Assembly: GCA_964016885.1 (NCBI GenBank)
Contig: OZ024766.1
Span: 14,818,001 to 14,882,000, forward strand
Source: Eledone cirrhosa
Taxonomy: Eukaryota
Length of the DNA stretch: 64,000 nucleotides
Direction of reading: 5' to 3'
This document shows positions 9,446 through 52,171 of the stretch, in pieces. The notes beneath the pieces are model-generated. The model had not been told where the DNA came from. It did no database searches and worked only from the letters and a program-made list of their open reading frames with translations. The position numbers and the translations under genes are program-made. The stretch's first letter is position 1; each line of letters starts with the position of its first letter.

Positions 9446-10560
<1,115 letters not shown>

Positions 10561-10709
10561 TATACACATATATATATATTTGTATGTATATATTTGTGTG
10601 TGTGTATACAGAAATAATATATACACTACTTAATTATATATATATATACAACATATCAAAATAAATCAAATAAATTTAAACAACAACTGAATCTACCAAA
10701 ATAGAATAT

Positions 10710-10719
10710 TTTATTTATT
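10710..10719 (-). promoter_or_regulatory. Candidate polyadenylation signals (overlapping AATAAA) of the ankyrin-Death gene
   Basis: Two TTTATT on the plus strand ~380 bp past the stop, with U/GU-rich sequence downstream on the minus strand. Confidence 0.35.
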
Positions 10720-10796
10720 TATAATTTGGTGATAAACAATATTTTTGGTAAAAGTAATTCTTCTTTTTCACGCTTTCTTTCTTTCCATCCTTTTTC

Positions 10797-10832
<36 letters not shown>

Positions 10833-11093
10833 CATATACACACACACACAAGGGTATAAAGTGGTGGTGTAAAGTGATAGAGTTGTTGCCACAATAAAAT
10901 ACACCTTGTTCACTCTGTAAAGTAGTCATGAGGGTTCCACAATAAAATGCACCCTGTCCACTCTGTAAAGTGGTTGTCATTGAAAACATCATCCAGCAAT
11001 GTCTGGTCTTGTTCCATGACAACACAACCCATCCAGTTAATGCTAGAATGGAACACAGATATAAGATGATGATGATGATGATGATGATAGAGA

Positions 11094-11299
11094 CTAGTTT
11101 TTCTCTGAATCTAGACAACCAAGAGCCTCAAAACAATCTGCTGTCTTTAGGGCTTCTTCCAGAGTGGCTATGGTGCATTCTTCTGGTTTACTAATTTCAC
11201 TCCATTTGAGTAACATTTGAAAAGCCCGTTGGTCAACATCATAAGGATTGTTCTCCTTGATTTTGTAAAGTTCAATAGCTGGAACCTCTAATTGAATAC
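11094..11299 (-). CDS. Ankyrin/RING-like/Death gene, last coding exon (Death domain C-terminal part, stop TAG)
   Basis: TTTTACAG acceptor, phase 1. Encodes GIQLEVPAIELYKIKENNPYDVDQRAFQMLLKWSEISKPEECTIATLEEALKTADCFEALGCLDSEKN*, with death-domain motifs ML..W and T...L..AL. Confidence 0.85.
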
Positions 11300-11767
11300 C
11301 TGTAAAATATAAAACAATAAGAAACCAATACTACAACAACAATAACAACATTAAACAGATTAGTTATATAAAATATGTATACCACAGGTTGCTGTAAATA
11401 ACAAAGTAACTAGCTGTAGAGTAATAGAAATAATTAATATAAAAATTCTAAATTATTGTTGTATGTTTCCAAGGATACCGACAAAAATAAAGAAGTTGAA
11501 GTGAGGAGAAGAAAGAAGAACAAGATTAAAGAAAATAGACTTGAGAAAATTATGGCAAAGAAATGGCAGAAGTTTTTGTATTGACAGAACTGGTTCAGAA
11601 TTTAAATATCCAACATTGATAACCAACATTCACAACATGTCATCCATAGGAAAGGTTTAAAGGATGAGATTGAAGACCCCTCAATAACATCACAAGATCA
11701 GTGTCTGAAATAGTCAGGGTTCTGCCTAAAATCTATCAAGACATCAATGACAAGTGACAAACATTTC

Positions 11768-12965
11768 CTCATCATCATCATCATCATTTTACATCCTCTT
11801 TTCCCTGCTTGCAAGGGTAGAACGGGTCCTATTCATCATCTCTCCATTTGACATGGTCCTTTGTCATCTCCTCTTGTGAGCTTCAGCGATCTGAGGTCTG
11901 CTCTCACCACCTCTCCCCATATTTTTTGTGGTCTTCATCTACTGTGTCTTCCTTCCACTGGGATTTCTTGGCACTTCATTACTCAACAGTCACCCGCCAT
12001 GCATATCACACATCCATACCAACACAGTCTTCTCTCCTGCACACTACATCTTATCCTTCTTATACACAGTTTCTCTCTCAACTGGTCTATGCTGGGTCAT
12101 TCACACACATTGACATTGCACATCCAACGGAGCATGGTTGCTTCATTTCTCTCCAGCCGTCACATTTCCTCCACAGTTGCTGCCCATCCTTATTCTAGAT
12201 ACTATGGCCTCGGAGCACCCTCCTCCTATATTAATCTGATCACCTAGGTATCAGAAGCTATCAACTACCTCTGTAGATCCCACCTGCATTTGAAAAATGT
12301 GTCTATCACTGCGAGTTCTACTGTCAAATTTCCCTGTACATCTACTGCATACGTAGTTTTCCCTACCTGTCAGTTTGCCTGCTATCCCACTACATATCTT
12401 AAGTATACAAGATCTGCATTGCTTACATTTTATACATATCGAACATGGCCATTTCCCTGGTGGAATCAGAGTTTTGTCCTCTTTTCTACTCATCAACACA
12501 TTTGTCTTAGCTAGGTTAACTCTCAGTCTTCTTGGTTCCAACTACTGTTTCTATAGCCAGAATTTATTCTCTAGCTCCTCTACTGATTCTGCTATAAGAA
12601 CCAGATCATCAGCATAGAGAAGTTCCCATGGACAGCAAGTCTTAAACTCCTCTGTTATGGCTTGGAGGACTATAATGAACAAGAGTGGGCTGAGGACCGA
12701 ACCCTGATGTACACCTACACATATCTGGAATTCCTTACTAAACTCCATTCCTACTCTCACTTTACTGACAGCACCCCTGTACATAACTTGGACTGTCCTC
12801 ACAAGCCATTCCCCTACACCTAGTTTCCTTAAGGACCACCAGATGACAGATCGGGGTTCTCTATCAAAGGCCATCTCTAGGTCAACAAAAGCTAAGTATA
12901 GTAGCTTATTCTTCTCTAAGAACCTGTCTTGTAGTTGTCTCACTAAGAAGAGGGCATCCTTGCTG
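11768..12965 (-). mobile_element. RTE-clade LINE fragment (RT and 3' end), intronic
   Basis: YLAFVDLEMAFDR, GVHQGSVLSPLLF, LLYADDL and a (GAT)n tail. Confidence 0.85.
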
Positions 12966-13597
12966 CTAAATTTAATGGACATGTTGAGTAGCACGAAGAT
13001 GACTCTTTTGGAGTACATGATGGCTAGAGGTATGGCTTGAAGGATCAAGACTCCTACAGTTCTGTGGTGTAAGTGACTTCAAGATATCAGCCAATCATTT
13101 GATCAGGTAGACATACAAGCTAGATTAACTTTATTCTCATCAGAAAACAAATAGACAGATGGTTGTGAATATTAAATCTGTTTCCAGAGAAGGAAGCCTT
13201 TGGTAGAGAGTGTGGACAAAGGAAGACCCTAACCTTAACAATAAGACTACACCATCTCATAAGACCAAGATGACTAAAGAATGAAGGAGTAACAATCTCT
13301 AGGAATAATGTAGGGTGGTCACACCTGGAACACCCTCCATTATAAATCTGCAGATCATGGCAGAACCGAGACTAAATAACAATAACAACCTATTTGTAGA
13401 TTGAATATGTTTCAATAAAAACAAAGAAAAACATTCCCATTAACTCACATGTTTACCCCAATACACCAACAGATTTTTATTCCCTGTTTTAGAAGACAAT
13501 ATTAGTTATATTGTGTCTTCTAATTTATTCATTTTTACCAATTCAGTTAAAAGTAAACTTTATAGAAATCAACAAGATACTGTAATCTTATACTCAC

Positions 13598-13669
13598 CAA
13601 CTGGAAACCATTTTCCCACTAACAGTCCTGCTACCTTCCACAGGACTTTCTCATTCGGCTTTTGAGACC
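13598..13669 (-). CDS. Ankyrin/RING-like/Death gene, coding exon 5 (Death domain N-terminal part)
   Basis: TTTTTTCAG acceptor and G|GTGAGT donor, phase 1-1. Encodes RSQKPNEKVLWKVAGLLVGKWFPVG, matching the death-fold L..va..lg..W..lg pattern. Too short for the ORF track. Confidence 0.8.
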
Positions 13670-14710
13670 CTGAAAAAATATTTCCAAGTTTTTTCATTTT
13701 ACTGTAAAGATTTTCTATTCCTGTTTATAATCTATATTTTATATTTTCAGACATTCCTATAATCAGAAGTCAACTAGTGATCACAATGGCTTTAGTCAAT
13801 ATTTTCTCTTCTTGTTATATCAGGTTATCTGAGTATTTAGGCCCATAATAAAATATGTTAAACTTTATAAATATTTTCTATCTATAAAAACATCTTATAT
13901 TACATTATGGTAATTATCTCATTTCACTATCAGCTGATTATACATTTGTTTTTCTCATAGCTTTGTCTTTCACTTATGCCAAATCTACAATATAGCATCA
14001 CTGTCCTCTCATCTCTGTATTTTACTAATAAATATTCTGTTTATTTTCTTCTTAATTCTAATATCAGCCACGCTGGTTATCAAAGACCTAGCCACACATT
14101 CATGATAGCCGACATGAAATAGGAGTAGATACACTGCTTTCCTTGAGAAAGGTTGATGTTGGCACTCTTTAGTTTAAACTGACCACATCTGTGTTCACCA
14201 GAATGTCATCTGATTCATGTAATATTTACAAATATTTACATGTCACGTGTCTTCCATAATGATACAGGAGCTCATTGGTGAGCACTAATTATTCTATACA
14301 GGTGAGAAGGAAAGTGATAACAGGTGTCTTAAAACACTGTACACTTACACAAATCCTCATTAGCTCCCTTTAACAAGTCATCTCTACATTAATGCAGTGA
14401 AAATATCTGAAAAGGATCCATGAAATGACCCCAACATTATAAATTATCTCCTACAGACCCCTTATATAAATAAATCATAGTTTCTCAAATCTTTGCTACT
14501 AAGTGTCTACTATTTCTATAGAACCATCTGGGCAGTTGAAATGAGATAGAATCCAATAGTTCTATAGAAATCATCATCATCAGTCTTACGTCCATTCTTC
14601 CACACTAGCATGGGTTAGACAGATTGTCCTGCTGTGGGTGATGTTAGGTCAGGTGACCTTGTCTTGCTCATACGGGAACTGATTTTGGCTTGATTTCTGA
14701 AGCTGGATGT

Positions 14711-14763
<53 letters not shown>

Positions 14764-14932
14764 TGTATTTTATTAAATGTAATTTAAAATTAAAACCTTC
14801 AATGTACGATTTTTGCCTATGAAAAATAATCTAATAGAAGGGGACACCATTGCCTATGTGACTCAAACTCACATTTGCCTTATACAGGACATCTTTACTT
14901 ACCAGTTGCAATCGACATATATATATATATGC

Positions 14933-14966
<34 letters not shown>

Positions 14967-14989
14967 GCATATATATATATATATATATA

Positions 14990-15132
14990 TGGAGGCACAT
15001 GGCTTAGTGGTTAGAGCATTGGCCTTGCAATCGAAAGGTTGTGAATTCAATTCTCAGACCGGGTGATGTGTTGTTTCCTTGAGCAAGACACTTTATTTCA
15101 GATTGCTCCAGTTTACTCAGCTGTAGAAATGA
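14990..15132 (+). mobile_element. tRNA-derived SINE; relatives at 4930-5150, 27820-28020, 51945-52075 and 17265-17335(-)
   Basis: A box TGGCTTAGTGG, B-box-like GAATTCAATTC and conserved body CCTTGAGCAAGACACTT. Confidence 0.8.
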
Positions 15133-15336
15133 TATGATAGGGACTGGGGTCCATATCATTCCACTGCAAAGTGGTCGTGGAGGTGCCACGGCAAAAAAGC
15201 ACCCAGCACTCACTGTAAATGAGGTTGGTGTTAGGAAGGGCATCCAGAAGTAGAAATCTAGCCAGAATCAGTTCCCGTCCCACCTTTGCAAGCAGGGAAA
15301 ATGCGGACGTAAAATGAAATGATGATGATGAAATGA

Positions 15337-15373
<37 letters not shown>

Positions 15374-15387
15374 CACACACACATACA

Positions 15388-15520
15388 TACAAGGGTGAGT
15401 CAAAATATAATGCAATTTTTGTCATAGAAAACAACATCATACTTCGGGACTGGGCATATCAAAAGATCAAAATAACGGAGGTAAACTTTGTCCCATCATT
15501 ATGCTTTTCTTGTTTTTCTG
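15388..15520 (+). mobile_element. Mariner-like MITE end; other copies at 30680-30800 and ~33060
   Basis: TA CAAGGGTGAGTCAAAATATAATGCAATTTTT is shared with 30680. Confidence 0.55.
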
Positions 15521-15523
15521 TTC

Positions 15524-15582
15524 AAGTTCTGATGAGATCATAGCTGTGGAATAATGGTTATCATCCGAAATATATATAACTG
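15524..15582 (+). ncRNA. Degenerate minimal hammerhead
   Basis: CTGATGA-GATCATAGC..GTTATCATCC-GAAA-TATATA-TA-ACTG. The stem I register is off by one base. Confidence 0.45.
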
Positions 15583-16539
15583 TGACTATGTATAAACGAA
15601 GTTAATTTTAACCTATTGACTTACACTTCTTGTTTATATATATATGGAGGATATATAAAACAGGAAACAAGAAGGTGTAAATAGCAAGGGGCATAAATAT
15701 GAGGGAAGGGAGATAATTCGACAACATAACATAACTAGTATTTAATAGAATTTAATGTTGAAATACTAAGGAGATATTTAAAGAAAAAGGAAGAGAGGTG
15801 TTAGTATTATACTTAATGGTAGAATAAAAAGTGAATATAGGAGTGAAAAGAAATAGCATGCAAAATTAATGGAGAGGGTTAATATAGGAGGAATCATTAA
15901 AATTGAAATAATTAAGGGGAGTGATGTATATTAAGACAATGGAGGAAAGATAAATAAAAGTATATTATAAAATAAAGGGTAAGAAAATGATAGAAGAAAA
16001 GAAAAGTAAGATTATCATATTTAATGTCCAGGCTATGTATACGAGAGTGTAAGAGGTGAAATTATTAGGTAAATGTTCCTCAAGTGATTAATTTAAGTGT
16101 AGAGTTAAGGGGAGGTCTAGGTTGAGGGTCATACATAGGTGTGAAGAAATAGAGTGAAGAAGAAAAGGAAAGACTAAAGAGATGAAAGGAAAATAGGTGT
16201 TAATAAGTTATGCTAAGGTAAAAGGAGATTCAGCAATAGGAATACTAATTATAAAGATAAAAATAAAATATAGATAGAAATTAAAATATTTTAAAAGAAG
16301 GGGTTTATAAAGATATGGTCAAAGAGTATAAAATTAATCACAAAAGGGGAAAAGGCCTAGATAGGGAGGGTTAATACTAATAAGAAATAGGATAGAGGGA
16401 TATTATAGGAAATGTATTATAAATAAATAATTATAATTCTCACAACTAATCTCCTATCTCTCCTCCTTGGTTAGTTGGTACACATAATATTGATATATAT
16501 ATATATAATGCAAGTATACAAACAGCAATAAATGTAAAG

Positions 16540-17120
16540 TAACTGAGAGAGACGCTGGGTATAAGAGGGATCAGATGCAGTATGCTAGAGTGGAGAATGT
16601 GTTGGTTTGGTCATGTGATGTATATGAAGGACAGCAGTTGTATAAAAAGGTATAAAAAGGTACAGGACGGTCAAAATTGATGGAAGCTATGAAATAGGAA
16701 GACCCAGGAAGACCTGGGATAAGGTGATAAAAGCTGACCTTGCACACTTGCACCTCTCAAAGACAATGACACAGGATCGAGATCACTGGTGTTAAGCAGT
16801 AATATACAATACACACTTTGCCATGTCCACAGACTCATACATCTAGTAGGCACCTCTTACTGTACCCACTCCTCTCCACACTACCTGTACACTGTGAATA
16901 AAACATATCCAGCCCACACTGTAAATGGTTGTGTAAGAGCCACAACAAAAAGCACCCAGCACACATTGTAAATGTGGTTGGCATTAGGAGGGACATCCAG
17001 CTGTAGAAACCTAGCCAGAAACAGTTCTATGTGAGTAAAACAGGGTCACCTGATGCTACTTGCATCAAATGGGACAACCCGTCTAGCCCATGCTAGCATG
17101 AAAAATGGACAGTAAACGAT
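16540..17120 (+). mobile_element. RTE LINE 3' fragment
   Basis: Same ORF-end and 3' UTR motifs as the other RTE copies. Confidence 0.7.
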
Positions 17121-17370
17121 AAAAATTTGTTTTTGTACAAGAAAACACAAATATAGGTGAAGATAGAATAAAAGTTCAAATATAAGATTTATGACTATAA
17201 ACCATTTAGACAGGTTTGAATAACAGAACAGCTTACTCATAAAATTAAGGTGCAAAAGATACAATAAGCTCCTGGGAATTGAACTCAGAACCTTATGATC
17301 ATGAGACAAACACACTAACCACTAAGTCATGAATGGAAATATACAGACAGATTATCAAATAATTACTTAC

Positions 17371-17567
17371 TAAATTCATCCACCGTACATACAGTCATTC
17401 CACACTGTGGACAATGTTCAATTGTGGAACAACATTTTTGACATAGAGTGGATATATTGGTGGCTTTAATAATCTGACATGGAGTGGATTTATTGGTGGC
17501 TTCATTAACCTTACATGGAGTGGATGTATTGGTGGCTTTATTAACCTTACATGGGGGACATACAGAC
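17371..17567 (-). CDS. Ankyrin/RING-like/Death gene, coding exon 4 (degenerate RING-like Cys-rich segment)
   Basis: TTTTACAG acceptor in phase 2 and A|GTAAGT donor in phase 1. Encodes SVCPPCKVNKATNTSTPCKVNEATNKSTPCQIIKATNISTLCQKCCSTIEHCPQCGMTVCTVDEF. Confidence 0.8.
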
Positions 17568-17977
17568 CTGTAAAAGAAAATAAAGATACAACCCACCAAC
17601 AACATTAATTTACACCAAATATTACATTGTATACAAGTTTACAGAGATTATATGTGAAGGGTTTCAACAACCTCTCTAGTATTGGTGACATGATAAAATA
17701 CAACCTGTACACTCTGTAATGTGGTTGCTAATAGGAAGGGCTTCCTGTCATACAAAACTTTCCAAACAAGGGTTAGAGAGGATTCTGTAGTGGTTTCAAA
17801 GACATGGCAACATCCCTAGTGCTGGTGCCATGATTAAATCAGCAGTGCCTTTCATGATGATGATGATGATGCTGATTTATAATAAAAGGTGGGATTTGAA
17901 CTCAGAACGTTCAGGGCCATAACTCTATGCTGCAAAGCATGGTGTTTGACGCTCTACTGATACTGCCAATCCATAAT

Positions 17978-18290
17978 CAATAATAATAATGAAAATTATT
18001 GTGTACAATGCTCAGGTGCACTACAACTCATCAAAGGTTCATGTATTGTACATAGAGTAATGTAAAAATATCAGGAAAGTGAACAGTGATTGAGTCATGA
18101 TATACACACACATGCGTGCATGTATGGAGGTGAGGATATCAGGTGTAGTGTTGGAGAATTTCAGGAAGGATGGAGGTGTTAAAGGATGCAGTGTCCTGAC
18201 AGCTAACAACTGATGCAGGTAGTTGGTTCCATGCTTCAGTAACTCTGAGCATGAAAAGATGTTTCTGAAAGTCATGGGGTCTGTACTGTT
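17978..18290 (-). mobile_element. Older CR1 3'-end fragment
   Basis: Homologous to 57580-57845 (AATGAAA..TTATTGTGTA..GCTCAGGTGCACTACAACTC; CAGCTAACAACTGATGCAGG). Confidence 0.8.
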
Positions 18291-18399
18291 TTCCTGCTAT
18301 TTCTTGGCTTAAAGCAGAAATCAGTTGTCAAACTTCCACAACTTCTGTATTGAGGGTCTATTTTTTGTTGTTGTTGTTGATGTTCTTCAACAGGAATGG

Positions 18400-18700
18400 T
18401 AGGGGAAGACATGGTAGTTGGTTTGTGTTGTTGTTCAACAGCAATGGTATAGGAAGACACACAGGCCAGGGACTGAAAGGACCAATTTGGTAGCTGCACC
18501 TTTTCCTAGAATCCATCCATCATCGAAATAGGGTGTCTCTTTTTTTGACCTGGGATCTTTGGAATGTTTATGGCACATTGACGACAGAGAGAAACGTGAC
18601 ATTTACCACATTGAATCTATTTTGGAAATAGTTCTTGGGTTCGGTACATAGATGACAGACGTGATTTTCCTGGCAATCTTCTATTTTGGGACAGAGAACA
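18400..18700 (+). mobile_element. Degenerate Penelope-like RT remnant
   Basis: WVRYIDD at 18636-18656. The surrounding frame is broken. Confidence 0.4.
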
Positions 18701-19004
18701 GTTTTATTACACACCCCTCATCTATGGATGTCACCATAGCAATTATGTTCTGTCTGTCCATCCATACAATACAACAATAGGTAAACAAATAGATATGTCT
18801 AAGTATAACACACTTGTTAAGGAGATCAATAAAATATATTTTCTTTCTGTTTTCCTATTCTACGTGTGTGTGTATATAAAAAGATCTACACATGTATATA
18901 TAATTAAGAGATGTATATAGGCTAGAAATGAAGTCTATGTCCAGTGTTTATAATGTAGGTACGATAGTTACTATAGTTTCTCACACACGAAACAGGATTT
19001 CCTT

Positions 19005-19148
19005 GCACTATGTGTGTATATATATGTGTGTGTGTATGTATATATATATGTGTGTGTGTATGTATATATATATGTGTGTGTATGTATATAGATATGTGTG
19101 TGTATATATATATAGGTGTGTGTGTGTATATATATATATATATGTGTG

Positions 19149-19209
<61 letters not shown>

Positions 19210-19238
19210 ATCTACATATATATGTGTGTGTATCTAGG

Positions 19239-19277
<39 letters not shown>

Positions 19278-19306
19278 ATCTACATATATATGTGTGTGTA
19301 TCTAGG

Positions 19307-19339
<33 letters not shown>

Positions 19340-20756
19340 ATCTACATATATGTGTGTGTGTGTGTGTGTCTGTACATATATATATATATATGTGTGTATA
19401 TACATATATATATATATATATGTACAGACACACACACACACATATATATATACCTAGATACACACACACACACACACACATATATCTACATATATACATA
19501 TATGTGTGTGTGTGTGTGTATCTACATATATGTGTGTGTGTGTGTGTATCTACATATATATACATACATATGTGTGTCTGTGTATCTACATACATATATG
19601 TGTGTGTGTGTGTATCTACATATGTGTGTGTGTGTGTGTATCTACATATGTGTGTGTGTGTATCTACATATATGTGTGTGTGTGTATCCACATGTGTGTG
19701 TATCTACATGTGTGTGTGTGTATCTACATGTGTGTGTGTGTCTACATATGTGTGTGTGTGTGTATCTACGTATATGTGTATATCTACATATATGTGTGTG
19801 TGTATATCTACATATATGTGTGTGTGTGTATCTACATATGTGTGTGTGTGTGTATCTACATATATGTGTGTGTGTGTGTGTGTATCTACATATGTGTGTG
19901 TGTATCTACATATATATATGTGTGTGTGTGTGTGTGTATCTACATATGTGTGTGTGTATCTACATATATATGTGTGTGTGCGTGTATCTACATATATGTG
20001 TGTGTGTATCTACATACATGTGCGTGTGTGTGTATCTACATATGTGTGTGTGTGTATCTACATATATGTGTGTGTGTGTATCTACATATATGTGTGTGTG
20101 TGTATCTACATATATATGTGTGTGTGTGTATCTACATATATGTGTGTGTGTGTATCTACATGTATGTGTGTGTGTGTGTATCTACATATATGTGTGTGTG
20201 TGTATATCTACATATATATGTGTGTGTATGTGTATCTACATATGTGTGTGTGTGTATATCTACATATATATGTGTGTGTGTATCTACATATATGTGTGTG
20301 TGTGTGTATATCTACATATATATGTGTGTGTGTATCTACATATATGTGTGTGTGTATCTACATATGTGTGTGTGTATCTACATATATGTGTGTGTGTGTA
20401 TATCTACATATATATGTGTGTGTGTGTATCTACATATGTGTGTATGTGTATCTACACATATGTGTGTGTGTGTGTATATCTACATATATATGTGTGTGTG
20501 TATCTACATATATATGTGTGTATGTGTGTGTGTCTACATATATGTGTGTGTGTTTGTATCTACATATATGTGTGTGTGTGTATCTACATATGTGTGTGTG
20601 TGTGTATCTACATATGTGTGTGTGTGTATATCTACATATATATGTGTGTGTGTGTATCTACATATATATATGTGTGTGTGTGTATCTACATATATATATG
20701 TGTATATGTGTGTGTATCTACATATATGTGTGTGTGTGTGTGTGTGTATCTACATA

Positions 20757-20788
<32 letters not shown>

Positions 20789-22445
20789 TGTGTGTGTATC
20801 TACATATATATGTGTGTGTGTGTGTGTATCTACATATATATGTGTGTGTGTGTATATCTACATATATGTGTGTATGTGTATCTACATATATGTGTGTGTG
20901 TATCTACATATATATATATGTGTGTATGTGTGTGTATCTACATATGTGTGTGTGTATGTGTATCTACATATGTGTGTGTGTATATCTACATATATATGTT
21001 TGTGTGTGTGTATATCTACATATGTGTGTCTGTGTGTGTATGTGTGTATATCTATATATATCTGTGTGTGTATCTACATATGTGTGTGTGTGTGTATCTA
21101 CACATATGTGTGTGTGTGTATATCTACATATATATGTGTGTGTGTGTGTATCTACATATATGTGTGTGTGTGTGTGTATCTACATATATGTATGTGTGTG
21201 TATCTACATATGTGTGTGTGTGTGTGTGTGTATCTACATATATGTGTGTGTGTATATCTACATATATGTGTGTGTGTGTGTAACTACATATGTGTGTGTG
21301 TGTATCTACATATATGTGTGTGTGTATATCTACATATGTGTGTGTGTGTGTGTATATCTACATATATGTGTGTGTGTGTGTATCTACATATATATATGTG
21401 TGTGTGTGTGTATCTACATATATATGTGTGTGTGTATCTACATATGTGTGTGTGTGTGTGTGTGTATCTACATATATGTGTGTGTGTGTGTGTATCTACA
21501 TATGGGTGTGTGTGTGTATCTACATATCTACATACATATGTGTGTGTGTGTACATATGTGTGTGTGTGTATCTACATACATATATGTGTGTGTGTGTGTG
21601 TATCTACATGTGTGTGTGTGTCTACATACGTGTGTGTGTGTATCTACGTATATATGTGTGTGTGTGTGTGTATCTACATACATATGTGTGTCTGTGTGTA
21701 TCTACATGTGTGTGTATATCTACATATATGTGTGTGCGTGTGTGTATCTACATATATGTGTGTGTGTGTGTATCTACATACATATGTGTGTGTGTGTGTA
21801 TCTACATACATATGTGTGTATATCTACATATGTGTGTGTGTGTATCTACATATGTGTATGTGTGTGTATCTATATATGTGTGTGTGTGTGTATCTACATA
21901 TATGTGTGTGTGTGTGTGTATCTACATATATGTGTGTGTGTATCTACATATATATGTGTGTGTGTGTATATCTACATATATGTGTGTGTATGTGTGTGTG
22001 TGTGTGTATCTACATATGGGTGTGTGTGTGTGTATCTACATACATGTGTGTGCGTGTACATATATGTGTGTGTGTGTGTATGTACACATGTGTGTGTGTG
22101 TGTGTATATCTACATATGTGTGTGTGTGTGTGTGTATCTACACATGTGTGTGTGTGTGTGTATGTACATATGTGTGTGTGTGTGTGTGTGTATCTACATA
22201 TGTGTGTGTGTGTGTGTGTGTATGTACACATGTGTGTGCGTGTGTGTGTATGTACACATGTGTGTGTGTGTGTACACATGTGTGTGTGTGTGTGTATGTA
22301 CATATGTGTGTGTGTGTGTGTGTGTATCTACATATGTGTGTGTGTGTGTGTGTGTATGTACACATGTGTGTGTGTGTGTGTGTATGTACACATGTGTGTG
22401 TGTGTGTGTGTGTATGTACACATGTGTGTGTGTGTGTGTACATGT
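19005..22445. repeat. Compound (TG)n/TATCTACATA satellite, ~3.4 kb, intronic
   Basis: Seen directly. It is the source of the 673, 993 and 1045 aa artefact ORFs. Confidence 0.97.
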
Positions 22446-22615
22446 TGTTGTTTAGACAATACTTACAGCAGTAAGTATATGTATTAAGTCCCATCATTAA
22501 AGAGACAACATAAGGAGGCCCCATGGTGGCATTTTGACATTAATGGCTGAATAAAAACCAGAGATTATTGAGTAAAAGAAAGAAATGTTGATATTCCATA
22601 TCATTGTTAACTTAC

Positions 22616-22962
22616 TGTTCCATTGTTCCTCCTGCAGCTCTGTCACCTGGAACAGGGCTGGCATGAGACCCCAACATCTCTATTATAGCTCGGTGTCCTA
22701 CACGTTTGGCCCATTCTAAAGCTGTCAGACCTTCGTCATTTACAATACTTAAGTCTATTTCTGGCCTTGACAGCAACACCGCCACAACCTCTGTATCTCC
22801 CCAATATACAGCCCTATGTAAAGGCGTATTACCATAACAATCCCTCATATTCAGGTCAGCTCCCCCGGCTATCAATAGCTTTACCATGGCAACACTCCCC
22901 CTCCTCCACCACCCTACAGCCAGATGTAAAGGTGTTGACCCCTTTCTATTTCCTTGATTGAT
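22616..22962 (-). CDS. Ankyrin/RING-like/Death gene, coding exon 3 (ankyrin repeats 3-5 and linker)
   Basis: TTTTCAG acceptor (phase 0) and CA|GTAAG donor (phase 2). Contains GSTPLHLAV, GNTPLHRAV and GLTALEWA ankyrin motifs. Confidence 0.92.
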
Positions 22963-23728
22963 CTGAAAATGTAAAAATATATTAAATATGGTGGGAGTGA
23001 GAGTGAAGGGGAGAGTATGTAGTAAGAGAGGGGGCGAGTGGAGGTGTGGGGAGAGAATTAACAATAGACGAGAGAGAGAGAGAGGGGAAGAGAGAGTGAG
23101 AGCGGTAAATAGAGAGTGAGTAAGACAGAGTAAAAGAGTGAGAGAGAGGGAGAAATAGAGAGCGAGGGGAGAAAAGAGGGAGAGAGAGAGGAAGAAAAGT
23201 GAGAGAGAAAGAGAGAGTGAGAAATTCGTATCTGTAACCCCCCCCCCGTCCTTCTTAGATTTTTGTATTAAATAAATAGATTAATTCACACACACACACA
23301 CACACACGTAGACAGATACACATACACACAGAAATACATAGAAAGATACACATATATACTCACACACAGACACATACATACATACATACACAGACACATT
23401 CGTAGACCGATACACACGTATATACACACAGACAGTAACACACATACACACACAGACAGTCACACACGGACACACAGACAGACACACACATACACACACA
23501 CAGACAGTCACACACACACACACAGACACACACACACGGACACACAGACACAAACAAATCCATACAGAGTGGTAGTAGCAGTAAGAGTAGACAACAGTGA
23601 TAGTAGGAGGAAGGTGTGACGTCATAAGATAGACGCTACAGAAAAAAATGGTGGAAATATGTAAATGTCTCTAATTTGAGTTAAGTTTGACTTATTTCTC
23701 TCATTTAATGACAGAAATATGACAATAA

Positions 23729-24507
23729 TCTATATATATAATTCCCGTTCTGTGTGTGTGTAAAAGAGTTTCACTTGGAAAATATTCCATCCATCTCTGT
23801 CAAATTAAACACATAGCCAAAATAGGCTACGGTCTGTAACATAAAGAAAAAATTATTTCATAATGATTAATTTCGAAGTCACAAACTTCGATTTTATAAT
23901 CTTATAGGCTTTTGCACTAACAAATTCCATGACGGCCATTAAAGAGAGAGAGCGTTCCTTTTACACACTTCTTAACTGTCCCCCTTCCACAACACGACGT
24001 TATGGGATGGTATGTGTATGTGCGTGTGTATATGTGTGTGTATGTGTTTGTGTGTGTATGTGTGCGTGCATGTGTGTGTGTGTGTAATTTCCATAACGGC
24101 CAGAGAGAGAAGGATGTGTGAGAAGGGGATAGAAAGCGAGGAGTGAAAGAGAGAGAGAGAGTAAAATAAAGAAAGAGAGGAGTGTGTGTGACTTAACTCT
24201 CCCCCTTCCACAACGTCACGTCTTGGGATTATGTGTGTGTGTATGTGTGTGTACGTGTGTGTATGTGTTGTGTGTGTGTGTACGTGCGTATGTGTGTGCA
24301 TGTGTGCATGTGTGTATGTGTGTGTGTATGTGTATAAATGTGTTAATCGTAAGAAATAACAGACGATACTTTAGCGATAAATACAGTGTTTATAATTTTA
24401 ACTTATTTATTACACTTAACTCTCCCCCTTCCACAACGTCACGTCTTGGGAGTGTGTGTGTATGTGTGTATGTTTGTGTATGTGTGTGTATGTGTGTATG
24501 TTTGTGT

Positions 24508-24566
<59 letters not shown>

Positions 24567-26697
24567 AATGTGTTAATTGTAAGAAATAACAGACGATACT
24601 TTTTATTCAAAAAATTAAACTCTAAAGCAGTTTTGATGTCATAAATCATATTTTCAAAGTGAAAATCGTCATTTCTTTAATACTTATTCAGAGGTTGAAA
24701 TATATTTACTGTTTGTCTTTTGGTTTTTAATCAAATATTTACACATTGCTCAACCGACACTGCTAAACACGATATTAGCAAAATTATTTTGTAAGTATGA
24801 AAATCTAATCATATTTTCGGTAGAATGCCTCGAAAAAGAAAGAGTAACATTGGAAAAAAAACAAAAAATGCTTTTGCTTTGCGTTCTTTGCGCGCAAGCG
24901 AAACAGAAGAACAATGTGTGCTACGGCGTGCTCGCAATGCTGCTTCTACCTCGATCGCCAGAGCATTACAAACAACTGAACAAGCAGAACTCCAGCGTGC
25001 TCACAATGCTGCTTCTACTTTGAACATCAGAGCATTACAGAAAGCTGAACAAGCAGAACTCCGGCGTGCTCGCAATGCTGCTTCTAATTCCAATAGCCGT
25101 GCTTTAGAGACTGTTGACCAAAGGGCAACAAGGCTTGCGGCTGATTCTCAACGGAAAATGCGTACTTATGTCTTTCCGAGGGATTCTTCCTGTTACTGGT
25201 CTAAGAAAGGTTTTCAATACAACCCCCAAGAGGACTACGCATCCCATCCACATATCATCATTGGTAGTATGTCAACTGTTTGCGTCCATTGTAATGCAAT
25301 GAGGTGGCCAGCGGAATCTACCGGTATATGTTGCTCCAATGGAACGGTTAGATTGCCTTATTTACAAGTCGGTGCCGAACCTTTGAATTCTTTGCTGCTT
25401 GGAGACCACCCTGATTCTAAACACTTTTTCAGAAATATAAGAGCCTACAATTCGGCTTTCCAAATGACAAGCTTTGGTCATACACCAATAAAAGATGCGA
25501 ATTATATGCCCACATTTAAAGTGCAAGGCCAAATTTACCATCAAATAGAATCACTTATTCCACAAGATGGCAAAGAACACAGTTTTCTCCAGATCTACTT
25601 TATGGGCAACGGACCTGAAGAAATTGCACGAAGGGCTTCAGTTGCTAAAGGAACGACACCTTCTCTTCTGCAGCCCCTTCAATATATGCTTCATTCCATA
25701 AACCCGTACATCACCATTTTCAAAACAGCTTTACAACGTAGAGATGCTAACAACAATCAATACAAGGTTGTCATTCGAAATGACCGCGATCCACCAGGGC
25801 AACATCAGGGTTGCTTTAATAGACCCCAAACCGATGAAGTTGCGGTGATTATAACACGTCCTAATCAGAGCGCTTCAAACCGTGATATTGTTATTGAATG
25901 GCAGGACTCGCATCTTCAAAAAATAAATGAACTTCATCCCGCATATGATGCTCTCCAGTATCCATTGCTGTTCCCCTTTGGCGACGATGGCTACCGCATT
26001 GATTTGCAAAAGTGTAATCCTGTAAGTTTAATGCCTCTTACACCAGGGAAAACCATTTCACAAATGGAATTTTATGCATTTGTGAAAAACGACGTCAACA
26101 TTCTGCATAGAACACGGATGCTCCACAATCAATACTGTGTAGACATATTTGCTAAGATTGACACTGAACGCCTCCAATGGATAAGACATCATCAAAAGGA
26201 ACTGCGTTCAGAAGAATACGGCAATCTACGTGACAAAGTAAACCGAAATGATCAGGCTAATGCTTCGGATGTTGGGCTTTCTGTCATTCTCCCATCATCA
26301 TACACTGGAGGCCCCCGTTACATGCATGAAAAAATGCAGGATACTCTGACCTATGTCCGCCATTGTGGCCGTCCTGATCTTTTTATCACCTTTACATGCA
26401 ATCCAAAATGGTTTGACATCCAGTCTCATTTACTGTTTGTCTTTCGGTTATTAATAAAAAAAATTACACATTGTTCAACCGACACGGCTAACGATACATT
26501 TCTCTATGTTCACATTTTAATGACACATATCTGTAAATAAAACTTGCTCTTTTTGAATACCGTCTCATTTTGTTTTATTGAAAGAGTTGTCAGGTAAAAT
26601 TATCCTCCAAGTTAAACATACAACACGGAAATTGACCATTAACATTGCAGCCCTACCAAGAACTGACACCGCCCAATGGACGGGGGTCATTTGCTAG
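23729..26697 (+). mobile_element. Helitron, internally deleted (non-autonomous), intronic
   Basis: 5' A|TCTATATATATAA, subterminal GC hairpin (26664-26689), 3' CTAG|T, no TSD. Contains a truncated RepHel ORF. Confidence 0.85.
24825..26540 (+). CDS. Truncated Helitron Rep/helicase (N-terminal region to Rep motif 1)
   Basis: Motifs C..C.A..W..E....CC..G.V, YNSAFQMTSFG, FKVQGQIYH, YDALQYPLLFPFG, ILPSSYTGGPRYM and PDLFITFTCNPKW. Homology ends near 26420, with no HUH/Tyr or helicase motifs. Confidence 0.9.
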   Translation: MPRKRKSNIGKKTKNAFALRSLRASETEEQCVLRRARNAASTSIARALQTTEQAELQRAHNAASTLNIRALQKAEQAELRRARNAASNSNSRALETVDQRATRLAADSQRKMRTYVFPRDSSCYWSKKGFQYNPQEDYASHPHIIIGSMSTVCVHCNAMRWPAESTGICCSNGTVRLPYLQVGAEPLNSLLLGDHPDSKHFFRNIRAYNSAFQMTSFGHTPIKDANYMPTFKVQGQIYHQIESLIPQDGKEHSFLQIYFMGNGPEEIARRASVAKGTTPSLLQPLQYMLHSINPYITIFKTALQRRDANNNQYKVVIRNDRDPPGQHQGCFNRPQTDEVAVIITRPNQSASNRDIVIEWQDSHLQKINELHPAYDALQYPLLFPFGDDGYRIDLQKCNPVSLMPLTPGKTISQMEFYAFVKNDVNILHRTRMLHNQYCVDIFAKIDTERLQWIRHHQKELRSEEYGNLRDKVNRNDQANASDVGLSVILPSSYTGGPRYMHEKMQDTLTYVRHCGRPDLFITFTCNPKWFDIQSHLLFVFRLLIKKITHCSTDTANDTFLYVHILMTHICK

Positions 26698-27161
26698 TTA
26701 AATATAAATTAACAACATGTTGCCAATGGATTCTCTACATTTTATTTTGTCTCTCTTGGAAAACTATTTCCATGTGAAAAGAAAGGTTTAATTTGTCGTC
26801 TGTTTGACAGGGTCTTTATTGAGGGGGGTGCAAGACAGATGTGGTGGCAGTGTTAGTAGAAAATTACAGAGAGAGTGAGGGAGGTGTTTATTGATAGTGG
26901 CGAAGGTGGAGAACGAGAGGGAAGGCAGGGAGGGGGAGGTAATGAGAGAGAGACAGGGAGAGGGAGGGAACGAGAGAGAGAGAGAAAAAGAGAAAGAGGG
27001 ATGGAAAGAAAGAGAGAGAGGTAAGAAGTTAGAGAGAATGAGGAAAGTGTATCTGTCTGTGTGGATGTCTGTCAGTCTAGCATATAGTTGACAAGGGAGA
27101 TAATCAATTGGACAAACTTGGTGATATTTCGTTTTGAAAGAACATTTTTTGAGAGAGTGAG

Positions 27162-27198
<37 letters not shown>

Positions 27199-27201
27199 AC
27201 A

Positions 27202-27300
<99 letters not shown>

Positions 27301-27325
27301 GAGAGAGGGGGAGAGAGAGAGAACA

Positions 27326-27358
<33 letters not shown>

Positions 27359-27361
27359 ACA

Positions 27362-27410
<49 letters not shown>

Positions 27411-27627
27411 GATAAATATATAAATAGAGTGAGGGTGAGAGATAGATAGCTAGGTAGACAGACAGATAGATAGATAAATTGCCTAGGGTAGATAGGTGGA
27501 TATTATAGATAGATTGATAAATATACAATGATTTGGAAATATTTTCAGTATTTATCAATAGTGATGGTCATATTGAACAATAATCAATAGAATCAGACAA
27601 ATCTACAGAGTGTATATGTTGACCCAC

Positions 27628-27775
27628 CTTAATAGCAGGTGTGTTCATTAACAACTGTGCAATATCTGTACAGTCCTTAATGACGGCCATGTGGAGTGGA
27701 GTATACCCGTCTTCATCCTGACAATTTACATCCACTCCAGAGGACAGCAAGGATTTCACCTTTTTATAGTTTTTT
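27628..27775 (-). CDS. Ankyrin/RING-like/Death gene, coding exon 2 (ankyrin repeats 1-2)
   Basis: TTTCAG acceptor and AAG|GTGGGT donor. Encodes QKNYKKVKSLLSSGVDVNCQDEDGYTPLHMAVIKDCTDIAQLLMNTPAIK with the G-x-TPLH ankyrin consensus. Confidence 0.9.
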
Positions 27776-28064
27776 CTGAAAGTAGTAGAAATAAATACAA
27801 ATACACATATATAGGAAATGAAGGCACATGGCTTAGTGGTTAGTGTGTTCTACTGAAGATCATAAGGTTGTGAGTTTGAGTCCTGGGGATGGCTTGTGTC
27901 CTTGAGCAAGACATTTTATTACATGATGATCCAGTCTACTCAGCTAGCAAAACTGAGTTGTACCAGTAATACAAAGGGTCAGCCTTGTTAATCTGCTTAT
28001 CCTTGAGAACTACAATAAAGGTACACATTCATGTCTGTAAAGTGGTTGGTGATAGGAAGGGCAT

Positions 28065-28975
28065 CCAGACCAGGATACTGGAATAGCCTAGCACCCTCAT
28101 CTAGGAACATCAACTGATACATCAGTAAGGACCAGTGATGGTGAGGCTGAGATGCTGAAAGAGCCAAGCACCTTCACCGAGGAGCATCAAGTGACACATC
28201 AGTAAAGCATGGTGATGGTGAAACTAAGATACTGCAATAGCCAAGTACCCTCACCTATGAGTATCAACTGATATATCAATAAAGCATGGTGATGGTGAGG
28301 CTGAGATACTGGAATAGCCAAGCACCTTTACATAAGAGCACCATGAGATACATCAGTGAAGCCAAGTGATGGTGAGACTGAGATACTGGAATAACCAAGT
28401 TCTCTCACCAGGGAATATCAACTGGTATGACCGTAAGGCCTGGTGATGGTGAGGCTGAGATGCTGGAATAGCCAAGCACCTTTACATAAGAGCACCATGA
28501 GATACATCAGTAAAGCCAGGTGATGGTGAGACTGAGATACTGGAATAACCAAGCTCTCTCACCAGGGAGTATCAACTGGTATGACCGTAAGGCCTGGTGA
28601 TGGTGAGGCTGAGATGCTGGAATAGCCAAGCACCTTTACATAAGAGCACCATGAGATACATCAGTAAAGCCAGGTGATGGTGAGACTGAGATACTGGAAT
28701 AACCAAGCTCTCTCACCAGGGAGTATCAACTGGTATGACCGTAAGGCCTGGTGATGGTGAGGCTGAGATGCTGGAATAGCCAAGCACCTTTACATAAGAG
28801 CACCATGAGATACATCAGTAAAGCCAGGTGATGGTGAGACTGAGATACTGGAATAACCAAGCTCTCTCACCAGGGAGTATCAACTGGTAAGACCGTAAGG
28901 CCTGGTGATGGTGAGGCTGAGATGCTGGAATAGCCAAGCAGCCTCACCACCAGGAACATCACCTGATACATTGGT
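28065..28975. repeat. 77-bp monomer satellite with a 154-bp dimeric higher-order repeat
   Basis: GGTGATGGTGAG recurs every 77 bp (28442, 28519, 28596..), alternating A and B variants. Confidence 0.9.
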
Positions 28976-29083
28976 AAGTGAAGCCACCAACAAGAACAAG
29001 AGCCTAATTGTCAATGGCTACCAACTCCCCCATGAAAGTATGAAATGAATCAAACAGAATAGAAATAATTGTTGTAAACTTAC

Positions 29084-29169
29084 TGTGAAACAGCTTCATG
29101 TAGTGTTATGTTACCAGTTCTGTCATCCTTTAGCTGTAAACTAGCTGCTGCTCCACTTAATTTCTCCAT
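29084..29169 (-). CDS. Ankyrin/RING-like/Death-domain gene, coding exon 1 (MEKLSGAAASLQLKDDRTGNITLHEAVS..)
   Basis: ATG at 29169 is preceded by acceptor TAACAG (exon starts 29174). Donor CA|GTAAGT at 29083, phase 2, joins the next exon in frame. Starts ankyrin repeat 1 (GNITLHEAV). Confidence 0.8.
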
Positions 29170-30200: not shown

Positions 30201-31317
30201 GAGTATGTTTACAACTACCTTCTCAAACACCCTTATCTTACAACCTCACCATTTTCTGAGTGTATATATGTGTGTGTATGAGTGTATGTGTGTGTGTGTA
30301 TGCTTTAATTCCTATGGACCTTCATCATCATCAACACTCATTAACACCACATGCCAACCCCAGACACATCCAAATCTCTCTCTTATATATAGTCACACAT
30401 TTCAACACAACCTGATCTCAGTTTGACAATCTCCACAGACAGAAGAATGCGAGAAAGTTCTCCAACCCAAGTTAACCAGGAATCTATAAAATTCTTCCCA
30501 CCAAAGTTAAAGAACTTACTGGATCTATCAACTCATAATATTATAATATTATAAAAATTAAATCAAACATGTTTTAACACTACAAATGAGATCATTCTTT
30601 TCCTTTTTTTCAAATATACCTAACTGTACCAAGGATCTCACACATTTTCCAATATATATATAAATATATATATACACATACAAGGGTGAGTCAAAATATA
30701 ATGCAATTTTTGTCATAGAAAACATACTTCGGCACTGGGCATATCAAAAGATCGAAATAATGGAGGTAAACTTTGTTCCATCATTATCTTTTCCTGCTTA
30801 TTTCAAGATTTAGTTCTATTAAAATGTCCAAATGTCAATACTTCCAGCTACGATATAATGGACGCTATATCACATCGCTTATATTTCCATCACTAATTTT
30901 CTCCTTTTTCGTTTTCATAAAATTTCACCATGATGCAGTTTATATATAATATCATCTTTTTTAAATGTATCATGGATTACTTTACTGATTACAGAAGAAA
31001 GTGTAACACACTCTCTTCAATTTCTGTGGATATTGTCAATTACAATTTTATTTGAGGTATCATATCTACATGTATGTATATTTGTGTATAATATCTATAT
31101 ACACACTACACATGCCAGCAGAAAACCAACCGAAGGGTGTATATAACAGCAACAACAACAAAACAAGACAAAGATTACCAGGTAACTTACTTTTTCGTCT
31201 ATTTTACATTGTTTAGTCTTATATCACTTTCCACATTTTACGTATGTGTGTGTATTTATATATATATATATATGCTGTGGTTATCCCGATCTCACTCGGG
31301 ATCTCTCACACACACAC

Positions 31318-32322
31318 ATGCTAACTTAAAGAATGCCACGGTACTAAAGTACACAGATGACATCAAGCTGTACCTTGAGATAAAAAGGACAGATCCTGAA
31401 CACTATAGATCTTGCTTGCAGTCTGACCTGGACACAATGCAACAATGGATCTCAGACTGGCAACTCAAGCTAGCTGTGGACAAGTGCACCACCATACATT
31501 TTGGGAGTAAAAACCCAGCGTCCACATACTCCCTCCACAGCACTAATATCAAGAAGTCTTCTTGTGAACGTGACCTGGGCATTACGGTCAGCAGCGATTT
31601 GCGTTGGACGAAGCACATCTGTAAAATTGTCAAGAGCGTCAAGGGTGTCTTAGCATCACTCAGCAAGACCTTTGTCAGCCGTTCTCCAGATATCTATTTA
31701 AGGCTGTACATGGCTATGGTGCGGCCACACTTAGAATTTGCATCACCAGTCTGGAACCCCTATCTTGCTCAGAACATTGACCGCCTGGAAACTGTTCAGA
31801 GACGTGCAACCAAGCGAATACCCTCCATCAGGCATCTACCTTACATTGAGCGCCTTGCTTCCCTGGGCATGGATACATTGAAGCTCCGACGCCTGGCAAC
31901 TGACTTGATACACACCCACAAAATTGTTAACCATCTTTCCAACAACAACCCTGAGTACCTTTTTGATTTCCATGTGTCTAACACACGTGGACATGCCCAT
32001 AAAGTCAGAAAACTGCACAGTTCCCAAGACTTTCGGAAACATTTTTTCACGCTCAGAGTTGCTGAAGCATGGAACAAACTACCTGCATCAGTTGTTAGCT
32101 GTCGAGACACTGCAACCTTTAAGGCCTCCATGCTTCCCGAGATCCGCAAACACTACAGCTAATGTTCCCCCTCCATACACATACACACATGTATACCATG
32201 ACTCATACCCTATTCACTTCCCTGACATTTGTGTATTATTCTATGTACTATACATACACCTTTTACGAGTTGTAGTGCACTTGAGCACTTTACACAATAA
32301 TTTCATTATTATTATTATTATT
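31318..32322 (+). mobile_element. CR1-clade LINE 3' fragment, same family as the 57.6-60.0 kb copy
   Basis: ORF 31137-32162 matches from ANLKNATVLKYTDD to PEIRKHYS. Ends in an (ATT)n tail. Confidence 0.9.
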
Positions 32323-50661: not shown

Positions 50662-51703
50662 TATCATCATCATCACCGTTTTACGTCCGTTCTTCCACGC
50701 TAGCATGGGTTAGACGGGTTGTCCTGTTGTGGGCAGTGTCTGGTCGGCTGACCATGCCTTGCTCATACAGGAACTGGTCTGGCTTGATTTCTACAGCTGG
50801 ATGCCCTTCCTAACACCAATCTCATTTACAGTGAGTGCTGGGTGCTTTTTCGTGGCGCCTACACGTCCACTTTACAGTGTGGGCTGGGTGCTTTTTTGCC
50901 GTGGCACGTCCACGACCACCTTGCGGTGCGGGTGTGGGGGCATATTGTCTATATGCTTCAGCTTGTACCCATGGGAGGTCGGGTACTCTGTATTACTGCG
51001 TGACGCCAGAAGTCACGGTCGTGTGTCATTTCCTTTGAGAGGTGTAATTGGGTAAGGTCGGCTTTTATCACCTCATCCCAGGTCATCTTGGGTCTCCCCA
51101 CTCCGAGGTTTCCATCAACTTCTAGTGCTCTGCACCTTTTTATGCAGCTGTCATCCTTCATACGCATCACATATCCATACCAGCGCAACCGCCTCTCTTG
51201 CACACAGCATTTGATTCCTCTTTTGCTCAGTCTCTCTCTCAGTTCATTTATGCTTTGTCGTTCACGTATATTACTGTTACACATCCATCGGAGCATGCAG
51301 GCTTCGTTTCTCTCTAATCTACGTAAGTCTTCCACCTTCAGCGCCCAGGTCTCACTACCATGCAACATTGCTGTTCGGATACACGCATCATACAGTCTGC
51401 CTTTCATTCTGAGGGAGAAGCCTTTTGCAGCTAACAATGGCAGTAGCTCCCTGAACTTCTTCCATCCCGTTCTTACCCTAGTTATTGCACTTTCTGAACA
51501 CCCACCTCCGCTGCTAATTTGGTCACCTAGGTAGCAGAAGCTGTCTACTGTTTCTACAGGGCCCTCCCAGAGATTGGTGGTACTTGTTTCCTGTGGCTGT
51601 TTGCTGCTTGCTGTCCCAGCACAGCTGCTGCATGTGAAGCCTACATTCTTAATTAAGCTTCCTGAGATCCCGCTACATCTCTTGTGTACCCATTGTTTGC
51701 ATT

Positions 51704-51705
<2 letters not shown>
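50662..51705 (-). mobile_element. RTE-clade LINE 3' fragment
   Basis: [27 protein letters not shown] and GRPKMTW, plus 3' UTR and (GAT)n tail. Confidence 0.88.
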
Positions 51706-51763
<58 letters not shown>

Positions 51764-51817
51764 ATCCTTTAACGTCCATCCTCCATGCTAGCATGGGTGT
51801 ATATACGTATATATATG

Positions 51818-51848
<31 letters not shown>

Positions 51849-52171
51849 GGATATATATATGTATATACGTGTATATATATAAATACGTGTATATATATAT
51901 ATATATATATATACGTGTGTGTGTATATATATATATATATATAGTGAAGGCGTGTGGCTGAGTGGTTAGAGAATTGGGAGAATTGGATTCGCAATCGTAA
52001 GGTTGTGAGTTCGATTCCTGGACCAGGCGATGCGTTATGTCCTTGAGCAAGACACTTTATTTCATGTTGCTTCTACCTGGAATTGTGACCGATAGATAGT
52101 ATAAGCAATTGGAAAGACCAACGGAAACATTGTTTCCTCGGTCCGATTTGACGAAAGTCGATCGTTAAAAG

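Follow-up and report, generated by a model that had tools for sequence, protein, structure and literature searches.

An octopod family of ankyrin-RING-Death genes in Eledone cirrhosa with diversifying selection on the ankyrin binding face

The gene, its exons and its transcript-like traces

The window analysed here, a stretch of 64,000 nucleotides of Eledone cirrhosa (contig OZ024766.1; C27:14,818,001-14,882,000 of G000, the 3.0-Gb genome searched for paralogues), carries on its minus strand a six-exon gene with an open reading frame (ORF) of 351 aa, in which five ankyrin (ANK) repeats are followed by a derived RING finger and a C-terminal death domain (DD) (Table 1). The gene belongs to a multicopy family, and the ANK binding face of the copies on C27 is under strong diversifying selection. 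The exons re-derived here agree with those of a first-pass annotation of the same DNA, with AG acceptors and GT donors throughout, phases 2,0,2,1,1 and a single terminal stop. At six further loci (five on C27, one on C26; 7/7 copies tested) the same six exons recur with the same splice sites and open frames, and all length changes in exons 3 and 4 among the ANK-bearing copies are multiples of 3.

Five TPLH-type anchors mark five ANK repeats of the 33-aa type, the number first proposed, and Pfam Ank scores above its cut-off on exons 2 and 3. The death domain that the first pass had placed at the C-terminus also stood. Exon 6 alone matches Pfam Death (PF00531) with an E of 5.6e-4, which lies under the gathering cut-off because helix 1 sits in exon 5, whereas 12 out of 21 paralogous exon 6 sequences match Pfam Death (best E 2e-6), a profile built from the Pfam-passing Octopus DDs scores the spliced window protein with an E of 3e-31, and the PDB profile matches of exon 6 are the death domains of PIDD, FADD, ankyrin-3 and RIPK1. 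The top Atlas matches are likewise Death (0.88-0.89, a lead only); AlphaFold of exon 6 alone gave four helices at a pLDDT of 54, too weak for use, and wide fold searches with Foldseek and VIA returned no meaningful match.

The Pfam scan of exon 4 in the window copy gave no match, RING included, and this copy fails the eight-ligand C3HC4 test through the missing C-x-H-x3 knuckle, while four of the seven ANK-bearing copies pass. The knuckle is gone, in frame, in three of the six C27 copies, the window copy among them (18 nt, a size implied by the exon lengths), and most paralogues and Octopus relatives keep all eight ligands, so that the remodelled finger described at first pass holds for the window copy as a recent change and not for the family as a whole. 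The RING of the least derived paralogue matches Pfam zf-C3HC4_3 with an E of 1e-7, its nearest PDB RINGs being those of the E3 ligases XIAP, cIAP and MYLIP. After the last Cys pair, members in G000 have Gly in place of the Arg/Lys that we take to be the RING linchpin. In two other copies, a second RING exon is shortened to 59 nt in frame (hand count). The 36-bp minisatellite within exon 4 counts 2, 3, 3, 3, 4 and 7 units in the six C27 copies and one unit in the C26 copy. Skipping of exon 4 would shift the frame (phase 2 to 1), so the exon is presumably retained as a linker. AlphaFold of exon 4 reached a pLDDT of 46, too weak for use, and an Atlas search with it gave no usable match.

At the 5' end, a conserved phase-1 acceptor AG (29176-29175) lies 6-7 nt 5' of the ATG and is found in 12 out of 13 exon-1 copies, so that the ATG at 29169 is perhaps not the true start; a further 5' exon is likely, and a search of the 75 kb upstream of exon 1 found no family exon. 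In exons 1-6, Pfam detected neither the MIB/HERC2-ZZ-MIB/HERC2 (MZM) arrangement nor SH3 repeats, and no MZM or SH3 ORF was noticed by eye in the upstream blocks common to the paralogues. The 351-aa product likewise contains no RHD, ZU5-UPA or kinase domain, and for NACHT/NB-ARC there is neither a Pfam match nor space.

Transcript-like support comes from C1, which carries two processed copies (208,683,900-208,690,200; L051, L052), broken, intron-less and poly(A)-tailed. Here, the ANK linker, the RING and both death-domain exons are continuous and followed by 3' untranslated region (UTR) and poly(A), the tail starting after the site equivalent to window 10693. Around the joints of exons 3 and 4 and of exons 5 and 6, 16-17 of 18 bases match on each side, and around the joint of exons 4 and 5 the matches are 11/18 and 16/18, which shows that cells reaching the germ line transcribed a paralogue and spliced it 3-4-5-6. 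The death-domain part of these processed copies has expanded into a tandem array, with about seven units at a period of 325 bp. Furthermore, one contig of run X2, a run whose kind is not on record and in which exon bins are deeper than the adjoining intron bins, connects a shortened RING exon with the acceptor of exon 5 (13669); its 12 bridging letters are those of the short RING exon end of the C27:15.05 Mb copy, not of the window copy. In runs X1, X3 and X4 exon joints were absent and introns were covered as in DNA. Thus, the splicing of ANK exons to the exons at 13.6 and 11.2 kb, for which the first pass had looked to spliced reads, is backed by the processed paralogue from exon 3 onwards, and the joints of exons 1 and 2 and of exons 2 and 3 found no transcript-like support in the processed copies or runs X1-X4.

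Table 1 Features of the gene and its surroundings (window positions unless a G000 location is given)
Feature	Location	Strand	Description
Exon 1 (from ATG)	29084..29169	-	86 nt; begins ANK repeat 1; internal-type exon
Exon 2	27628..27775	-	148 nt; ANK repeats 1-2; Pfam Ank E 1e-9
Exon 3	22616..22962	-	347 nt; ANK repeats 3-5 and linker; Pfam Ank_2 E 3e-24
Exon 4	17371..17567	-	197 nt; derived C3HC4 RING (MIB2 RING1 type) without C-x-H-x3 knuckle
Exon 5	13598..13669	-	72 nt, phase 1-1; DD helix 1 and the beginning of helix 2
Exon 6	11094..11299	-	206 nt; remaining death domain and stop
3' UTR	10693..11093	-	AATAAA signals near 10720-10711; poly(A) site probably near 10693, judged from the processed copy
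Module-loss junction	14497..14501		intron 4; second ANK-RING module deleted in window copy, retained at C27:15.05 Mb and C26
36-bp coding minisatellite	17439..17554		inside exon 4; 3.2 copies, 90%
MIB2-type gene, intact	G000:C24:25.74-25.82 Mb (L220-L229)		MIB_HERC2, ZZ, SH3_15, ANK, two RINGs
RHIM-like and DD gene, kinase-less	G000:C24:15,350,278-15,359,300 (L281)		VQIG-containing ORF; candidate Imd/RIP-like adaptor
Helitron fragment	24801-26540	+	intron 2; 579-aa open frame; Pfam Helitron_like_N E 4e-31
154-bp tandem repeat	28074-28944		intron 1; in all compared family copies with exons 1-2
21-bp minisatellite	33120-34720		long ORFs on either strand (476 and 593 aa); also in two C27 copies
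LINE-type reverse transcriptase ORFs/fragments	57692-60088; 31092-32162	+	one ORF of 798 aa, RVT_1 E 4e-38
LINE-type reverse transcriptase ORFs/fragments	11800-13100; 50958-51965	-	
C2H2 zinc-finger fragments	9446-9616	+	adjoining the gene

Gene family and selection on the ankyrin exons

Exon 6 has at least 35 matches in the genome. Eight belong to the C1 array, and the other 27 are loci of their own (6 on C27, 14 on C18 and 7 elsewhere). A tree built from 44 DDs unites the 11 copies from G000 in one clade (93/97), which bears out the lineage expansion considered at first pass. Six intact copies, including that of the window, lie within 2 Mb of C27. In the copies at C27:15.05 Mb and C26:23.58 Mb, two ANK-RING modules precede the death domain; the block from exon 1 to exon 4 begins and ends in phase 1 and is therefore repeatable. 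The C27 copies vary in orientation, module number and deletion junctions, and they are mosaics, with exon 2 identical in three copies and exon 5 identical in another three, pointing to exchange between copies. The Helitron fragment of intron 2 is common to all six at less than 1% divergence and missing from the C26 copy, which dates the C27 expansion.

RING and/or DD exons without ANK exons are found at 15 loci examined, several of them with stops or frameshifts, a birth-and-death pattern. Another shared N-terminal domain on the ANK-less C18 cassettes was considered and set aside, as no common coding domain was found in the 13-27 kb upstream of these 15 loci. Long C2H2 arrays lie upstream of several ANK-less cassettes (C18 and C28 flanks), and approximately 24 tandem copies of exon 2 with its flanks, many with a stop codon, are arranged at a period of about 1 kb on C12 (9,023,898-9,047,690).

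Investigating selection in exons 1-3 of the six C27 copies (190 ungapped codons; six gapped columns omitted), we observed amino-acid variation at 50 codons and no codon whose variation is synonymous only, with a pN of 0.069 and a pS of 0.005 (pN/pS 14) and minimum changes of 72.5 nonsynonymous versus 1.5 synonymous (p 7e-7). The dN/dS check suggested at first pass, a GY94 fit in our own code whose M0 log-likelihoods equal those of IQ-TREE, yielded an omega of 29.8 (versus 1, p 1.7e-10), and M2a was favoured over M1a (p 3e-19). None of the 70 four-fold sites in the ANK exons varies, hence the exons keep the same neutral clock as the introns and the excess consists wholly of replacements; first and second codon positions vary at 57 of 380 sites compared to 78 of 3775 non-coding columns (p 1e-25), the non-coding segments diverging by 0.4-1.7% on average. 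Exon 3 is the most variable exon, with 4.5-7.8% divergence between copies versus 0-1.7% in introns, a pN/pS of 10 and in-frame indels in the G-rich loop of ANK repeat 3, and exon 2 shows 20 nonsynonymous and 0 synonymous minimum changes. The second-module ANK exon, compared in three pairs, also has replacement differences only (5, 12 and 13 codons).

The variation is concentrated on the predicted binding face. Numbering each repeat so that the T of TPLH is position 6, we defined this face as positions 2, 3, 5, 10, 13, 14 and 33, with position 14 added from the DARPin design. Of the 34 positions on this face 23 vary, compared to 27 of the 156 remaining positions (Fisher p 2e-8), and of the 12 columns in which at least three residues occur, 11 fall on it. 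A designed ANK library is randomised at positions 2, 3, 5, 10, 13 and 33, and its randomised positions form one continuous binding surface (PMC4308713, its numbering being checked against ours for consistency only), and such positions form the paratope according to the accessible part of PMC8683736. The varied positions of the family hence coincide with those randomised in DARPin libraries, in a natural, germ-line encoded form diversified through duplication and selection. RNA editing followed by retro-conversion, considered as a source of the exon changes, was not supported, as A>G (12) and G>A (10) changes show no direction; A/G changes are the commonest (24/73), and the 40 transversions among the 73 changes also speak against it. 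Conversion from older donors would import synonymous changes, of which there are none at the 70 four-fold sites.

Ancestry of the parts and comparison with known systems

Relatives in other species were collected with a profile of 21 exon-6 translations, which recovered 64 representatives at an E of 0.001 or better; 47 of these were scanned for domains, and 13 proteins (11 of those 47 plus two cluster members) were inspected in full. Many of the scanned representatives have the order ANK-C3HC4_3-Death, whole or fragmentary. Among 20 clusters looked up, 16 were from Octopus vulgaris, O. sinensis or O. bimaculoides, one from Argonauta, one from amphioxus and two unnamed; the Octopus models mostly bear MIB1/MIB2-like, ankyrin-like or PSMD10-like names and, in one case, RIPK1. 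The 'MIB1/MIB2-like' models XP_029652081.1 (O. sinensis), CAI9744078.1 (O. vulgaris) and XP_014780589 (O. bimaculoides) share the ANK-C3HC4_3-Death order and, over the full length, match the spliced protein best (identity about 30%, E to 4e-42). Thus, the architecture is already present in public databases as automatic models; it stands outside the canonical classes named at first pass, yet it is that of an octopod family and not a one-off. A word-indexed protein search with exon 6 returned nothing, and one with exon 3 returned generic ANK proteins only, with at most 48% identity among the 120 matches listed. Within the text accessible to us, PMC9334734 included, neither an octopod ANK-RING-Death family nor selection on it is described, and the supplements of octopus genome papers may list the family. 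One automatic O. vulgaris model, CAI9744465.1 (P0121), has the order RING-DD-LRR-DD and is possibly a mis-join or another shuffled member.

Two genes on C24 supply the nearest in-genome relatives of the RING and the DD. One is an intact MIB2-type gene, with its C-terminal RING at 25.823 Mb, whose RING1 is matched better than its RING2 by the family RINGs in 8/8 comparisons, the least derived paralogue matching RING1 at 41%. Octopus members moreover retain MIB2-specific last ANK exons. The other is a kinase-less gene with a DD and a VQIG-containing stretch that we read as RHIM-like; six of seven family copies find their best in-genome DD match in this gene (the seventh gave no BLAST line), and its DD is split into a 75-nt phase 1-1 exon and a terminal exon, the former corresponding to 72 nt in the family, whereas at eight other DD loci used in the comparison the DD lies largely within one frame. 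Two of the profile matches likewise lack a kinase and combine a DD with what we read as a RHIM-like stretch. In the DD tree the clade from G000 lies within an Octopus group (94/66), which contains one unrelated long branch. Taken together, the family likely arose by fusion of MIB2-type and RHIM-DD-type genes, in keeping with the domain shuffling proposed at first pass, with a MIB2 RING1-type finger and a RHIM-DD-type death domain as the shuffled parts. About 100 kb from the MIB2-type gene (C24:25.93 Mb, L289) we noted a DED-DD exon that is FADD-like by eye, and C2 carries a separate small cluster (233.76-233.83 Mb; L291, L292, L294), in which the death-domain exons are nearly identical and a helical stretch lies upstream.

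By its defining domains, the window gene is not a Mind bomb ligase, an NLR, an NF-kB precursor or an ankyrin. MIB2 has the same succession of an ANK array and a RING1-type finger (degenerate in the window copy), yet the family lacks the MIB/HERC2 and ZZ domains, the SH3 repeats and the second RING, has different exon borders and has gained a DD, which in the window gene stands in place of the C-terminal catalytic RING. Compared to the Octopus models, whose names are automatic, the copies in G000 are without the MIB2-type last ANK exons that most Octopus members keep, and the window copy has a broken RING. The Imd/RIP-like RHIM-Death adaptors, such as the kinase-less 'RIPK1' of O. bimaculoides (XP_052833014.1), have the closest DD and the same two-exon DD layout, whereas in the family ANK-RING replaces the RHIM region and the genes are multicopy and fast-evolving. 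ANKDD1A/B, NF-kB p105/p100/Relish, ankyrins and DAPK, low-copy conserved genes, combine ANK and a DD in one chain but are not known to have a RING between the two; no ANKDD1 name occurred among the 20 clusters looked up, and no ANKDD1 sequence was compared. By analogy, the family may also be likened to NLRs with ANK, WD40 or TPR sensors, among them the fungal HNWD type and the death-fold NLRs of animals, in its hypervariable repeat sensor, repeat exchange and death-type effector, although it has no NACHT/NB-ARC switch and places the sensor N-terminally and the effector C-terminally. In the fungal HNWD NLRs, as far as the available part of PMC13449251 describes them, repeat sensors carry few hypervariable positions under diversifying selection and exchange repeats.

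Proposed role and alternatives

Judging from the sequence, the window gene would, with a probability of roughly 0.55, encode a variable sensor in the cytoplasm. Its ANK face would bind a foreign protein that changes fast, and its DD would relay the signal to a death-domain pathway. In this proposal, the 3' part of a MIB2-type gene (ANK and RING1) would have been joined to the two death-domain exons of a RHIM-Death adaptor. The concave ANK face of every copy would then have its own specificity, forming a natural DARPin-like library, while the phase-1 symmetric block of exons 1 to 4 and exchange between copies would reshuffle ANK, RING and DD alleles. Ligand binding would cluster the protein and expose the DD, which could nucleate or enter a DD assembly with the RHIM-DD adaptor or FADD, with NF-kB or caspase-8 as output. 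Exon 4 of the window copy would serve mainly as a spacer of variable length rather than as an E3 ligase. Human MIB2 ubiquitylates cFLIP without need of RING1 and requires its second RING, according to the part of PMC7815719 at hand, and this dispensable RING1 fits the RING decay in the window copy.

Several points weigh against the sensor reading. Scaffold positions of the ANK repeats also have a pN/pS of 12, and positive selection alone cannot separate a sensor from a target, or immune from reproductive conflict. For the RING and DD exons, pN/pS is 0.9-1.2 with a pS much larger than that of the ANK exons, values that represent older alleles and no net purifying signal; a ratio near 1 would not be expected of a fixed signalling interface and might reflect relaxed constraint or a mixture. 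Gene conversion between copies violates tree-based site models, while the counts need no tree. In the DD tree, the RHIM-DD gene is not resolved as sister (46/80). No transcript of the window copy was found, the sole spliced joint being of the C27:15.05 Mb type.

Among the alternatives, the likeliest, though itself improbable, is a brake or decoy on death-domain signalling derived from the role of MIB2 towards RIPK1, in which the DD would cap RHIM-DD or FADD assemblies and pathogen attack or mimicry would diversify the ANK face. The fusion places MIB2 parts on a RIP/Imd-like DD, the many RING-DD-only cassettes are potential DD decoys, and MIB2 ubiquitylates RIPK1 and disturbs its oligomerisation and association with FADD, as reported in the accessible part of PMC5912950; the same source has MIB2 bind RIPK1 via the MZM region, which is absent from the window gene, the RING of the window copy is broken, and the many residues per site among the paralogues would fit widening recognition better than escape from one attacker. 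Somewhat less probable is an arms race outside immunity, either germ-line conflict (drive and suppressor, transposon control, germ-cell quality control) or self/non-self recognition, with the DD killing failing cells. The poly(A)-tailed C1 copies do require germ-line or early-embryo expression of at least one paralogue, and extreme omega in very young duplicates is typical of such conflicts too; yet both donor genes belong to death-receptor/Imd-type signalling, and at least three Octopus species possess the family, their ANK arrays being varied.

We regard as improbable a TRIM-like restriction factor, in which ANK would bind a target, the DD would cluster the protein and the RING would ubiquitylate the target for degradation. 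Intact C3HC4 ligands in most paralogues and Octopus relatives and the E3 ligases among the nearest solved RINGs would suit such a factor, whereas the knuckle loss in the window copy, the 59-nt RING exons, the Gly at the presumed linchpin and descent from MIB2 RING1 instead of the catalytic second RING do not. Least credible of all are functionless decaying segmental duplicates or uncollapsed haplotypes: the six copies agree at 98-99.6% in their non-coding DNA, pN/pS of RING and DD is near 1 and many cassettes are broken, but an omega far above 1 is restricted to ANK coding positions, all six frames are open, the copies differ in structure (orientation, modules, junctions), and the selection signal stands even if some copies are alleles.

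In a wider and more tentative extension of the sensor reading, the family might represent octopod-specific germ-line variable intracellular receptors built from MIB2 and an Imd/RIP-like adaptor, in which ANK would read pathogen proteins, the DD would signal directly, and exon cassettes and the minisatellite would retune architecture and spacer length. To our knowledge, few variable receptors have been identified in cephalopod innate immunity, and ANK-RING-Death genes are concealed in public annotation by 'MIB2-like' names. An omega of about 30 on a defined face, in copies whose introns are about 1% apart, is the mark of an arms race still under way and singles out the residues of interest. The family thereby offers a concrete candidate for a sensor-effector protein built from two known death-domain signalling regulators and a natural counterpart of designed ankyrin libraries, and the ANK module of each paralogue may serve as a bait for whatever octopods are racing against.

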